From a virus, in UHGV virus genome UHGV-0284389: 10,812 nt of DNA; one strand, given 5' to 3'. Shown here piece by piece: positions 68 through 6,546 of this stretch. The stretch's first letter is position 1; every line of letters starts with the position of its first letter. Made by a program: the position numbers and the translations under genes. The notes under the pieces were generated by a model. The model was not told where the DNA came from. It ran no database searches and saw nothing but the letters and a program-made list of their open reading frames with translations.

Positions 68-139
68 TATGACACCTGTGTTGTTCTGAGGTGAGCATAT
101 CACCTCTGTTCAGGTGGCCAAATTCAGTAAACCACTTCA
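1..139 (-). mobile_element. IS911-like (IS3 family) insertion sequence, left end plus start of orfA; continues beyond window start
   Basis: Minus strand reads 5'-TGAAGTGGTTTACTGAATTTGGCCACC... from position 139, an IS3-family TG... terminus, followed by an ATG at 67-65 encoding [23 protein letters not shown] recognise this from memory as the IS911 OrfA N-terminus; not verified by search. Confidence 0.8.
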
Positions 140-1539
140 ATCAGGCTGTCGATGATGAATAACTGGATCCCGTATCGGCGGCGAGCGTAGTCGAATATTT
201 CGATCAGCCTGTCGGCTTTCGCCGTTCCGGTCAGGCCAAACACCCAAAGTCTTTCGTCATAAAATTTAAATGCAGAGTCAATTTCCAGCACTGGCGGCAT
301 CTTGCAGCACGTCGCCTGACGGGTAAGTCGCTTAAGGAGAATGCCTGGCTTCAGCTCAAGTGACGCGATGCACGTCTTCACACCCTGACGCATTGCCTCA
401 AGTGCCATATGCCCGACAACCTCCGTTTTTCCGTGACCGTTCACACCATTGACCAGCGTCAACTCGGCCTCACGGAACTGGAATTTATCTGCCAGAGATT
501 CCCACGGTGGATTAAACAGATACTGCTGCTTGCCGTAGAAAGCGTTGATAGTGTCCTGGTAAAACTCTCGCGCGCTGTAGAGTTCTTCAGGATCGAAGTA
601 GGATGCCGTGCCGATGTACTGCCAGATTTCATCCTCGGTAACACCGTTCATCAGGCATTCGTTGATGTCTTTGTACGGCAGAGTAACAAGACGGCAACGA
701 TGTTCACCGAGTCGGCTTGCGATTTCCCTTGCGGCTTCACGACCAACATCATCAACGTCCATCGAGATGAATATTTCCTCAAACCTGTCGAGATTGTGAT
801 ACTCAAACTCAATCCACTGCTGCTTAGCGCCTTTCCCGCCACCAAACGGCACGGATAACGCCGAGATGCCGTATTGCGCATAGCTCATACAATCAATTTC
901 GCCTTCGCAAAGTACAACCGCCCTCACGCCAGCGTCCAGAGCCTGCCATCCGAACAGACAAGGTTCGCAATCACCTTCTGCCATAATGACTTTCTTCCCG
1001 TCCGGGCGCTCAGTGCTGATTCGCTTGACCTGCAACAACTCACCATCGCGTTTGTACGGAAGCACCAGAGCATCCAGTTCTCGCTCTCCATTCCACACCT
1101 TGCCGCTGACAACCTCGTAGCGCTTTACGACTTCTGGCGATATGCCACGCGATTGCAGGTACTCAAGATGGGATTCTGTTCTGGTAACGTAGCGGGCGAT
1201 TTTCTTGCGATCAGGTCTGGAGAATTTCTTCTCACGTTTGGCATCGAAATGGTGATCGTCATCCTTGATACCGAGAAATGCTTTCGCTTCCTGCATAGCC
1301 TGATGCAGGTTAATTCCACGACATGCCATCCACAAATCAAGCATGTCACCGCCGTCTCCCTCAGCGAAATCAGCCCATTTTTTCTTGCCGCTAAGGTTGA
1401 CCTTAAGGCTGTTTCCCTTGTCACCGTTGACGTTACCGGCAACCCACTCATGCCCATCTTTCTTGCCGTTTGGCAACAGGTGCGGAGCCACCCTGTCAAC
1501 CTGCGCCCAAAGCAGGTCGCTAAGTTCACTTGGAGTCAT
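124..1539 (-). pseudogene. T7 gp4-like bifunctional DNA primase-helicase, C-terminally truncated by the IS911-like insertion
   Basis: 471-aa ORF. The central TOPRIM region (VVLCEGEIDCMSYAQYGISALSVPFGGG...MDVDDVGREAAREIA...LPYKDINECLMNG) aligns with the T7 gp4 primase core, and Walker A (GVNGHGKT) and Walker B (LFIIDSL) helicase motifs follow. The frame ends 4 codons after Walker B with residues EVVY-stop encoded by IS terminal sequence (junction at 139). Helicase motifs H3/H4 and the arginine finger are missing. RBS GAGG precedes the ATG at 1539. Confidence 0.8.
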
Positions 1540-1649: not shown

Positions 1650-2510
1650 TCACCTGTCGAAAAACACGTAGCCAGTTTTCGATACGGTGATTGCGGATGA
1701 TGGTTTGGATTGTGGTTGAATAGTTTCTGGCTTCTCGTCGTTCCAGCGTTGACCGTTCAGGTAGCTTGATGGTAACAACCTGTCGAATCCGAACTGCTTA
1801 CCATTCCTGCATGCGATGTCTTCTGCCAGCATCGTGGCAAACTCGCTTGCCGTACCCCTGGTAGTTTTACGCCATTCCCTGAACTGTGTTCTGAATGCCG
1901 AAGCTGCGTTTTTCTTCCCGGCTTTCCGCATGCCTGCACACCAGAATATTTCCTCGAATGCCTTGTCGGTTTCTTCGTGACGGTCAGATGATTTTTCACA
2001 CTCAGTCCGAACACTTTCGGACATAGTGTTTTTATTATTTCTTTTTTCTTTTGTAATAGTTTCTTTTGTGTGTCCCTGTTTTGGTGACAGCGCTGTCACC
2101 GTTTTGGTGACACTTTTTGTCACCAATGCAGTGACATTATCACCAGAGTAGTGACACCCTTCGATTTGCCATTCCTCGATGTTCTTGTTAGGCCCGATTT
2201 GCTGGCCTTCGCGAAGGATAACCTTCATCGCGATAAGCTCATTCTTGGCCTTGTTTACCTTCTGTCTTGGCAGCCTGGTAATTTGAGCTAACTGACTATC
2301 AGAGATGCGATCCATCTTTTTACCGTAGCCGTATGTTTTACGGCATATGGCGTGGGCAACCTTGCTCTGATTTTTCGTTAAATCTGCGCCGATAAGCTCT
2401 TCATACAGGGCATTTGCAAGACGGGTATAACCATCTTCAACTTCTGCCACACGACGCTCCACAGGCCGTTGTGAAGGCCTTAAATGTGTTACGGTTGCAA
2501 GATTACTCAT
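1650..2510 (-). CDS. phage replication initiator, lambda O-like (replisome organiser), with origin iterons embedded
   Basis: 286-aa ORF sitting between cII and the helicase gene, as O does in lambda. The N-terminal segment ([58 protein letters not shown]) resembles the O N-terminal DNA-binding domain; a repetitive VT-rich linker is encoded by the iterons; the C-terminal motif is [34 protein letters not shown] upstream. Confidence 0.7.
2028..2072. promoter_or_regulatory. AT-rich tract flanking the iterons (candidate DNA-unwinding element of ori)
   Basis: TTTTTATTATTTCTTTTTTCTTTTGTAATAGTTTCTTTTGTG lies immediately next to the iteron array inside the O-like gene. Confidence 0.5.
2083..2157. repeat. 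iteron array of a putative phage replication origin (inverted GGTGACA/TGTCACC half-sites at ~20-25 bp spacing)
   Basis: GGTGACA at 2083-2089 and 2106-2112; TGTCACC at 2094-2100 and 2118-2124; GTGACA at 2131-2136; ATCACC at 2139-2144; GTGACAC at 2151-2157. All lie inside the O-like coding region, as in lambda ori. Confidence 0.65.
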
Positions 2511-2649
2511 GACCTTTCTCCTTCTGCATCAGCTTCACTTTTTCCAACTCAGCCCGGAATCGACCAGGCTGCTTGAAGCTGGACAGGAAGCGATCACGTA
2601 GTATGTGTTTGTGAATTTTGTCCTGGTAAGGACTGAGTTGTTTTGTCAT
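2503..2649 (-). CDS. small basic hypothetical protein (48 aa) between cII and the O-like gene
   Basis: ATG at 2649-2647 with a strong RBS (AGGAG, 6 nt spacing); its stop overlaps the O-like start. Translation [48 protein letters not shown]. No recognised homology. Confidence 0.45.
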
Positions 2650-2654
2650 AATGA

Positions 2655-2726
2655 CTCCTGTGGATTGATCCAGTCTTTCTACATCAGGCCTCGAAGAATT
2701 CGCCGTTCTTCGGGGCTTTTTCTTTT
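2655..2726 (+). ncRNA. oop-like antisense RNA candidate, ending in a strong intrinsic terminator opposite the cII 3' end
   Basis: Plus-strand hairpin CCTCGAAGAA-(TTCGCCG)-TTCTTCGGGG (2689-2715) followed by CTTTTTCTTTT. A candidate -10 CATAAT at 2647-2652 lies upstream. Position and orientation mirror lambda oop RNA, which is antisense to the cII 3' end. The 5' end is a guess. Confidence 0.4.
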
Positions 2727-2965
2727 GTCAGGTAATCGGCAAGCCGCTTAGTCAATTCAGCCATTTCATCGTCTTCGATTCCGTATTCCAGAACAGCAAG
2801 CATCATGCTTACCTGCGAGAAGAAACCATTCTTCCATCGGCTTACCTGATATTCAGGAACCCCCATCGCTCGAGCGAATGTCTTCTGCCCCATCAGTGCC
2901 AGTTTGTTCAGCAAGGCTGACTCGATGCGAGCCGCTTTCTTGCTTTTAGTTGCAATAGTACCCAT
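2684..2965 (-). CDS. cII: CII-like transcriptional activator
   Basis: 93 aa. [58 protein letters not shown] parallels lambda CII ([59 protein letters not shown]). RBS AAGGA; lies downstream of cro and nutR. Confidence 0.85.
2689..2726 (+). terminator. rho-independent terminator (10-bp stem, 7-nt loop, U-run)
   Basis: Stem 2689-2698 pairs with 2706-2715 (one G-U), followed by the T-rich run 2717-2726. Confidence 0.6.
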
Positions 2966-3041: not shown

Positions 3042-3073
3042 GCCCTTTTTCAGGGCGGGGATGTGTAAGAGCG
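3042..3073 (-). promoter_or_regulatory. nutR (boxA CGCTCTTA at 3073-3066, boxB GCCCTGAAAAAGGGC at 3056-3042)
   Basis: Minus strand reads CGCTCTTACACATCCCCGCCCTGAAAAAGGGCAT, nearly identical to lambda nutR; located immediately downstream of cro. Confidence 0.85.
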
Positions 3074-3081
3074 TTAATAAC

Positions 3082-4410
<1,329 letters not shown>

Positions 4411-4597: not shown

Positions 4598-4628
4598 CGC
4601 TCTTAAAAATTAAGCCCTGAAGAAGGGC
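4598..4628 (+). promoter_or_regulatory. nutL (boxA CGCTCTTA at 4598-4605, boxB GCCCTGAAGAAGGGC at 4614-4628)
   Basis: Sequence identical to lambda nutL boxA/boxB, within the PL leader upstream of N. Confidence 0.9.
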
Positions 4629-4785
4629 AGCATTCAAAGCAGAAGGCTTTGGTGTGTGTGATACGAAACGAAGCATTGGCCGGAAGTGCGAATCCGGATT
4701 AGCTGCCAATGTGCCATTGCGGGGTGTTTTCGTTCAGGACTACGACTCCCACACACAACCAAAGCTAACTGACAGGAGAATCCAG

Positions 4786-5118
4786 ATGGATGCACAAACA
4801 CGCCGCCGCGAACGTCGCGCAGAGAAACAGGCTCAATGGAAAGCAGCAAATCCCCTGTTGGTTGGGGTAAGCGCAAAACCAGTTAACCGCCCTATTCTCT
4901 CGCTGAATCGCAAACCGAAATCACGAGTAGAAAGCGCACTGAATCCGATAGACCTTACAGTGCTGGCTGAATACCACGAACAGATTGAAAGCAACCTGCA
5001 ACGTATTGAGCGCAAGAATCAGCGCACATGGTACAGCAAGCCACGTAGTGAAATGGGTGTGACCTGCTCAGGCCGCCAGAAGCAACGCGGAAAATCAATT
5101 CCAGCTTATTACGATTGA
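4786..5118 (+). CDS. N: antitermination protein N (lambda-like)
   Basis: 110 aa. MDAQTRRRERRAEKQAQWKAANPLLVGVSAKPVNRPILSLNRKPKSRVESALNPIDLTVLAEYH... is near-identical to lambda N, including the arginine-rich boxB-binding motif; the C-terminal ~25 aa diverge. RBS AGGAG. The track ORF 4654-5118 is an upstream in-frame extension. Confidence 0.93.
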   Translation: MDAQTRRRERRAEKQAQWKAANPLLVGVSAKPVNRPILSLNRKPKSRVESALNPIDLTVLAEYHEQIESNLQRIERKNQRTWYSKPRSEMGVTCSGRQKQRGKSIPAYYD

Positions 5119-5317: not shown

Positions 5318-5788
5318 ATGACAAAATCATGGAGCGTACCTTTTCCTGAATCAGAAACTGAACATGATGGAATGCCTGTTTTCTGGAGATTCCAAGCGAC
5401 AGTTGAAGAAGGTGGAATCAAAATATTCGCACTTCAATATATAGCTTTTCATCAGACAGAGCATTATGCATGGTTGGTTCCTGCGCATTGGATTGTTAAT
5501 TTTAAACCAGCACCAAATCAGTGGTTACAGGAATGGAAACAAAGGAGAAATAGATATGCAATTAAGAAAGTAGCAAAAAATGCAGAAAGATCTTTTGCAT
5601 TCCCAACGAAGAAACTTGCCATTGAGAGTTTATTGCGCCGGAAGAAATACCATTTAATGAGAATCAAACAAGATTTGGCTGTTGTATCAACTCTTGTTGA
5701 TGGGATGAAGAATATTGATACATCAACACCAGATATTGAATATAACTTTGGACACAACCAAGAAACAGAAAATTGGGTATTTTATTAG
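5318..5788 (+). CDS. hypothetical protein (156 aa), low-GC moron in the PL operon
   Basis: Good RBS (GAGGTGA, ATG at 5318). By eye the GC content is well below the flanking genes. The C-terminal half is K/R-rich; no predicted TM segment. No homology recognised. Followed by its own intrinsic terminator at 5893-5918. Confidence 0.6.
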   Translation: MTKSWSVPFPESETEHDGMPVFWRFQATVEEGGIKIFALQYIAFHQTEHYAWLVPAHWIVNFKPAPNQWLQEWKQRRNRYAIKKVAKNAERSFAFPTKKLAIESLLRRKKYHLMRIKQDLAVVSTLVDGMKNIDTSTPDIEYNFGHNQETENWVFY

Positions 5789-6153: not shown

Positions 6154-6257
6154 GTTTTACAGATAACTGGTCAGACGAAGAATTCATTCGTCAGATGAAC
6201 AAAATGCTCAATCAGCACAAAGAACAGGAGAAAGATGATGATTCTGACTCTGAATGA
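6150..6257 (+). CDS. small acidic hypothetical protein (35 aa), overlapping the cIII stop (kil position)
   Basis: ATGA overlap with the cIII stop. Translation MSFTDNWSDEEFIRQMNKMLNQHKEQEKDDDSDSE. No homology recognised; may not be expressed. Confidence 0.3.
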   Translation: MSFTDNWSDEEFIRQMNKMLNQHKEQEKDDDSDSE

Positions 6258-6546
6258 TAAGCGTGAAATATCGCAAATAATCGCAAGTTTTACTGATGAA
6301 GATTACGAACGAATCAACAGTGAAGTTGATCGCCTCTGCAAACGTTGCGACCCAATAAGCGAAATGCTTCGCTCATATAAACCAGATGAACATACTAAGG
6401 ATGCTATCGACTGGCTGGAAGATGATGATTGTAACTATCAGGAAAAAGCCGCTGAATGGTTCTGGGATGCAATAACCGAAAGAGTTAAGGCTGAATATGC
6501 CTTCGCAATATTCAAACGCAGACACATTTTTGGAGAAGCTGCATGA
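6235..6546 (+). CDS. acidic hypothetical protein (103 aa) immediately upstream of recT (gam position)
   Basis: RBS AGGAG 6 nt upstream of the ATG; its stop overlaps the recT start (ATGA). MMILTLNDKREISQIIASFTDEDYERINSEVDRLCKRCDP... Not similar to lambda Gam by eye. Confidence 0.6.
   Translation: MMILTLNDKREISQIIASFTDEDYERINSEVDRLCKRCDPISEMLRSYKPDEHTKDAIDWLEDDDCNYQEKAAEWFWDAITERVKAEYAFAIFKRRHIFGEAA

Follow-up and report, generated by a model that had tools for sequence, protein, structure and literature searches.

The locus analysed here raises the question of what lies between the cII gene and the O-like replication gene of a lambdoid prophage, on the strand opposite to the pR operon, and what the short basic reading frame beside it is. 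The window (the whole 10,812-nt stretch from the virus genome UHGV-0284389) covers the early region of the prophage, with the pR operon drawn on the minus strand. A preliminary description, made from the sequence alone, had proposed an oop-like antisense RNA terminator and a 48-aa gene at this place. We consider it very probable that the plus-strand element represents a lambdoid pO-oop-tO unit in its short P22/BTP1 form, that the 48-aa reading frame is the DUF2740 gene known as orf48 in P22, and that the RNA would exert antisense control of cII as in lambda. The features that enter the argument are the following, in window coordinates.

124–1539, minus strand: gene for a 471-aa Toprim-domain protein, following O (Pfam)
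1650–2510, minus strand: O-like replication initiator gene (Pfam Phage_rep_O, E 1e-37)
2503–2649, minus strand: orf48 (P22 orf48, HK620 hkaW, Pfam DUF2740), encoding a 48-aa basic protein (Pfam profile match)
2624–2652, plus strand: pO, the promoter of oop (alignment with lambda pO and the P22, BTP1 and mEp043 loci)
2642–2674, minus strand: 33-bp lambdoid block comprising the pO -10, the RBS and ATG of the downstream gene and the oop 5' end (pattern match)
2660–2725, plus strand: predicted oop RNA, ~63–66 nt (homology to lambda oop, P22C-oop and the BTP1 locus; fold z = -5.6)
2684–2965, minus strand: cII-like transcriptional activator gene (Pfam Phage_CII, E 4e-30)
2686–2726, plus strand: tO, an intrinsic terminator with a 14-bp stem, a 5-nt loop and a U-run (terminator scan and folding)
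3082–3300, minus strand: cro
3401–4033, plus strand: cI repressor (Pfam HTH_3 and Peptidase_S24)
within 4654–5118, plus strand: N-type antiterminator (Pfam N36)

All of the pR-side genes (cII, orf48, the O-like gene and the primase/helicase) are encoded on the minus strand, and the oop element occupies positions 2624–2726 of the plus strand. Among phage records, the nearest are Sf101, mEp043 and vB_EcoP-720R6, with matches over ~37–52% of the window at ~97% identity. The Toprim-domain protein (124–1539, minus strand) is called primase/helicase in related records; it is not a loader of the lambda P type, nor obviously a DnaB-type helicase such as P22 gp12. Inside the O-like gene, at 2030–2156, there is a replication-origin-like structure with a layout resembling that of ori-lambda. 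It contains four iterons of 19–20 bp (2071–2089, 2094–2112, 2118–2136 and 2137–2156), each with the internal palindrome TGTCACC-N5-GGTGACA, and beside them an AT-rich tract with TTTCTTTTGT repeats (2045–2069).

The locus is identified by its promoter region. In lambdoid phages the oop locus is marked by a highly homologous 33-bp region (Hayes et al., PMC3349717), and the published pattern ACTGGATCnATCnACAGGAGTnATTATGnCAAA matches positions 2642–2674 exactly, with one match in the window and none in 200 shuffles. Alignment of 2560–2760 with lambda, phage L, BTP1 and mEp043 reveals the common block TTTGTCATAATGACTCCTGTGGATTGATCCAGT, which corresponds to the lambda pO -10 (TG before CATAAT), to the AGGAG and start codon of the gene downstream and to the 5' end of oop; in the alignment to these lambda elements the block extends over ~36 nt with 3 mismatches. 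The exact match to the 33-bp pattern, together with the homology to lambda, P22 and BTP1, confirms the earlier placement of an oop-like locus between cII and the O-like gene.

The pO promoter consists of a weak -35 element (TGGTAA, 2624–2629), a 17-nt spacer, the TG of an extended -10 (2644–2645) and the -10 hexamer CATAAT (2647–2652), which holds the complement of the orf48 ATG (2647–2649). The motif TGnCATAAT is invariant in lambda, P22, BTP1, mEp043 and the Erwinia phage Midgardsormr38, and the equivalent 29 nt are annotated as "promoter: oop" in the P22 reference record BK000583. A generic sigma-70 promoter scan places pO below its threshold, a miss that we attribute to the weak -35, where only 3 of 6 positions agree. 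The scan lists no other plus-strand promoter in the interval 2300–2650 that would give a longer RNA reaching over the orf48 start.

At the other end of the element, the segment 2686–2718 is the top-ranked terminator-like site of the whole window in a consensus scan. Its hairpin has 14 pairs (6 of them G-C), a loop of 5 nt and the tail TTTCTTTTGT. The RNA of 2660–2727 folds with -27.2 kcal/mol compared to -13.4 ± 2.5 in dinucleotide shuffles (z = -5.6), and 0 of 200 shuffles were equally stable. The stem spans the codons for the last 10 residues of cII and the stop codon, and is contained in the last 11 codons of the gene. The scan rank and the z-score bear out the plus-strand terminator that had been reported inside the 3' end of cII, whereas the 10-bp stem assigned to it was too short. 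A T-run is absent after the hairpin on the minus strand; since a U-run follows the stem on the plus strand only, tO should stop only plus-strand transcripts, that is, those antisense to cII. Existing annotation already covers the terminator, both in the phage L records and in the P22 record, where it is called "terminator: oop".

The RNA predicted between these signals would start at G2660 by homology to lambda, 7 nt after the -10, or at G2663 according to a P22 small-RNA read, and would end in the U-run. Counting 77 nt back from the lambda terminator leads to the G of GUUGAUAG, to which G2660 is the homologous base, and this count is consistent with the 5' pppG given for lambda oop in PMC3349717. 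The predicted RNA could pair with 24 nt of the spacer between cII and orf48 and with the final 42 nt of cII (2684–2725, including the stop codon). Its 5' end adjoins the orf48 RBS (2655–2659) without covering either RBS or ATG, in the same way as lambda oop adjoins the RBS of O. The further suggestion of an RNA complementary to the RBS and start of the reading frame is not upheld, as both candidate 5' ends lie outside them; it is the -10 of pO that overlaps the ATG.

Two homologous RNAs have been observed. Small-RNA sequencing of P22-infected Salmonella yielded a 63-nt P22C-oop, GAUUGAUCCAGUCUUUCUACAUCAGGCCUC... (PMC13397905), whose first 30 nt are identical to window positions 2663–2692, and OOP(BTP1) was annotated from RNA-seq of a lysogen (Owen et al. 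2020, PMC7067206). The coordinates of OOP(BTP1) are absent from the supplements of PMC7067206; the BTP1 sequence differs from window positions 2660–2727 in a single base (G2662 here, U in BTP1). These homologues, sequenced as 63-nt reads in P22 and by RNA-seq in BTP1, lead us to predict that a discrete oop transcript is made from the window sequence as well.

The structure of the element persists where its sequence does not. In a set of 79 related loci, four oop/cII-end types (window/BTP1, P22, lambda-like and HK022-like) occur next to the same orf48, and each type folds to a hairpin with a U-run, with z between -3.3 and -5.8. Between the window type and the P22 type the sequence of the inner stem is swapped and the pairing retained, and TGTCATAAT is also present in the distant Erwinia phage Midgardsormr38, together with a short leader and a lambda-like hairpin with a U-run. 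The hairpin types were folded separately, and a column-wise covariation count was dropped because the window and P22 stems are one base out of register in the ungapped alignment. A search of Rfam at both gathering and E-value thresholds returned no oop family; lambda's own oop was also without a match, and the silence of Rfam is therefore uninformative. The sole weak Rfam match, ctRNA_p42d, scored 19 bits against a gathering score of 50 and was dismissed as chance. A modest but useful contribution to Rfam, which has no oop model, would be a covariance model based on the four hairpin types.

The likeness to lambda is close in layout and looser in sequence. The lambda OOP RNA is the 77-nt product of pO-oop-tO (Krinke and Wulff 1987, 1990, as cited in PMC7067206 and PMC3349717), compared to ~65 nt here, and it overlaps cII by 55 nt (PMC3349717), compared to 42 nt here. 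Both elements are located between cII and the genes for replication and run antisense to the pR operon, with the terminator inside the 3' end of cII; in both, the promoter TGTCATAAT overlaps the start codon of the next gene and the 5' end GUnGAUnGAUCCAGU adjoins the AGGAG of that gene. The lambda terminator hairpin, however, is unrelated in sequence to that of the window, the -35 region also differs, and the 5' domain is shorter and less structured here, its stem-loop being much smaller than stem-loop I of lambda. The gene that follows the shared RBS and ATG is orf48 in the window and O in lambda.

The phage P22 provides a closer match, and Backhaus and Petri are said to have described its oop and orf48 in 1984. 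The layout cII(c1)-oop-orf48-O(18) is the same, and so are the first 30 nt of the RNA and the 8-nt overlap with the O-like gene; the Orf48 proteins are 85% identical. The inner terminator stem is GAAGAAU/GUUCUUC here and AAAACUGU/GCAGUCUU in P22, both of which pair, and the C-terminus of the P22 cII protein differs accordingly. The Salmonella prophage BTP1 is closer still in the transcribed sequence, which is the same but for the one base, and its terminator is identical. Its record differs in that orf48 is not annotated and the RBS reads AGGGG, and its host is Salmonella, in contrast to phages of the Escherichia/Shigella type.

The 48-aa reading frame starts with ATG at the right end of 2503–2649, and its RBS (AGGAG, the complement of 2655–2659) lies 5 nt upstream. 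It matches Pfam DUF2740 over profile positions 1–43 of 43 (E 9e-29, 99.4 bits compared to a cut-off of 27), and its stop overlaps the start of O; the reading frame with an AGGAG RBS picked out in the preliminary description is thus real. The description of it as unannotated proved wrong. The records of P22, HK022, mEp043, Sf101 and phage L all annotate the gene, which in RefSeq E. coli genomes bears the PGAP name "DUF2740 family protein". The remark that neither feature would appear in a standard CDS track accordingly applies to the RNA, which is absent from such tracks, but not to the reading frame, which is routinely annotated. A 331-nt test region (window 2450–2780) has at least a partial match in 1250 of 5426 complete E. 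coli genomes, approximately a quarter, and at least 80% of it is present in 139 of them.

The RNA is not a discovery either, as the P22 reference record BK000583 carries the oop promoter, the oop terminator and orf48 at homologous positions, and the phage L records carry the terminator. Neither the oop locus nor orf48 is new to the literature or to reference annotations. What we find is a standard oop locus in this prophage, left unmarked by generic pipelines, which matters little beyond annotation.

The conservation of the reading frame in related phages, which had been expected for a genuine gene, was also found. We collected 54 homologues of 47–48 aa from Escherichia, Salmonella, Citrobacter, Klebsiella and Pluralibacter, confined to phages and prophages of Enterobacterales, with an invariant core of 16 residues and a C-terminal GHE. 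The homologue in Midgardsormr38, 58% identical, has exactly 48 codons and agrees in position and in its overlap with O. The numbers of variable sites at the three codon positions are 19, 14 and 22, and comparison with P22 shows 7 non-synonymous and 6 synonymous codon changes; this pattern is weakly coding-like. Frames 2 and 3 of the coding strand contain 2–5 stops in every allele, and the antisense frames also contain stops, with the exception of one that is open in the Erwinia allele. Taken together, the evidence for selection on the Orf48 protein is moderate. AlphaFold2 predicts a two-helix hairpin with a mean pLDDT of 80, for which Foldseek gave no match in the PDB, as expected for a helical hairpin of 48 residues. 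NCBIfam has no family for Orf48, and none of the papers in the collection searched mentions DUF2740.

Many RefSeq phage records (mEp043, Sf101, HK620, SEN22 and the Erwinia phage among them) label orf48 as a "tail protein", and PHROGs family 1913 carries the same label. We rejected the PHROGs label as a mislabel in view of the fixed place of the gene in the early-right operon; given the fixed position of orf48 between cII and O, the name is almost certainly a propagated misannotation.

At its downstream end, the stop of orf48 and the start of the O-like gene share the 8 nt ATGAGTAA (2503–2510), an overlap present in the window and in 77 of the 79 loci examined. P22, HK022 and the Erwinia phage share the arrangement cII/oop-orf48-O. 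The O-like gene has an AAGGAG of its own inside orf48, 7 nt upstream of its ATG, and for that reason translational coupling between orf48 and O is plausible but not obligatory. The 147 nt of orf48 are identical at the nucleotide level in 68 of the 79 loci, and they are joined upstream to the four oop/cII-end types and downstream to two or three types of O N-terminus, in nearly all combinations. Bounded by the 33-bp pO block on one side and by the ATGAGTAA overlap on the other, orf48 thus appears from these comparisons to behave like a conserved linker between mosaic modules.

One could go further and suppose that orf48 is not a functional protein at all, and that its 147 bp are kept as DNA, providing pO and a linker of recombination homology between the cII and replication modules, with the frame open so that ribosomes reach O. 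Near-complete nucleotide identity in the midst of so many module combinations is what this scenario would lead one to expect, and the codon-position bias is weak, with no fold or function match for the protein. We nevertheless consider it unlikely. Exactly 48 codons, a strong RBS and the conserved core persist in the Erwinia phage at 58% identity, the two other frames of the coding strand are interrupted in every allele, the AAGGAG of O at its 7-nt spacing leaves no obvious need of coupling, and the predicted helical hairpin is a confident one.

The preferred reading, a pO-oop-tO unit directed against cII with a DUF2740 gene beside it, implies the following course of events. RNA polymerase would start at pO, an extended -10 promoter with CATAAT lying over the orf48 start codon, at about G2660, and would stop at the tO hairpin and U-run in the end of cII, giving an RNA of ~65 nt. 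This oop RNA could pair over its full length with the mRNA of the pR operon, in a stretch that begins with the final 42 nt of cII and reaches the base beside the orf48 RBS. In lambda, cII expression is lowered in an RNase III-dependent manner (Krinke and Wulff, as cited in PMC7067206 and PMC3349717). On the strength of the perfect complementarity and the analogy with lambda, we infer that the duplex of OOP and cII mRNA would be cut by RNase III here too, leaving less cII and biasing infection towards lysis. Orf48 would be a small helical protein encoded where the lambda O gene starts, and read in one operon with the O-like gene.

A different main role for the same RNA is conceivable, namely control of replication together with the ori iterons inside O, either through transcription from pO or through the OOP RNA itself. 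In lambda, oop expression combined with ori-lambda iterons on a plasmid silences theta replication, and the cII-antisense role alone cannot explain the silencing (both PMC3349717); in the window, an iteron-type origin (2071–2156) lies ~500 bp from pO, which is directed away from it. The P22-type module (orf48-18-12), however, escaped the inhibition (PMC3349717), so that the effect may be specific to lambda O/P, and the layout of the window is P22-like. Complementarity to the 3' end of cII, moreover, is kept across four unrelated hairpin types. We regard replication control as the main role of the RNA as quite unlikely, and return to antisense control of cII as the explanation that we favour.

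It is also possible to speculate that Orf48 is functional, a small protein through which the antisense control of lysis and lysogeny is linked to replication, although we judge this to be very unlikely. The duplex of oop and mRNA would end one base from the orf48 RBS. If the idea were true, the cut by RNase III near the orf48 RBS would create a new 5' end of the orf48-O-P message and could alter the output of Orf48 and O, and Orf48 could modulate origin firing or a host factor. DUF2740/orf48 itself is combined freely with different cII types and different O types.

The notion that no antisense RNA is made and that the hairpin at the 3' end of cII serves only to stabilise mRNA or to encode protein is scarcely credible: the hairpin does form in the sense mRNA too and does encode the cII C-terminus, but the U-run follows the stem on the plus strand only, a conserved extended -10 promoter lies 34 nt upstream (its -10 ends at 2652, the stem starts at 2686), and the homologous RNAs were sequenced in P22 (PMC13397905) and detected in BTP1 (PMC7067206).

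Several observations concern the surroundings of the locus. Downstream of cI and N, Pfam matched none of the three plus-strand reading frames 3958–4410, 5318–5788 and 6235–6546 (103–156 aa). On either side of the immunity region there are the hairpins GCCCTGAAAAAGGGC (3042–3056, minus strand) and GCCCTGAAGAAGGGC (4614–4628, plus strand), which we take to be the boxB elements of lambda nutR and nutL, respectively. Given these boxB hairpins and the N36 peptide domain in the reading frame 4654–5118, the prophage appears to combine an N/nut system of lambda specificity with a non-lambda repressor. Inside the 5' end of cII, TTGCTTTTAGTTGC (2940–2953, plus strand) has the form TTGC-N6-TTGC, which is the CII-binding motif of a pRE-type promoter, and the homologous place in the mEp043 record is annotated as a "lambda cII" binding site.
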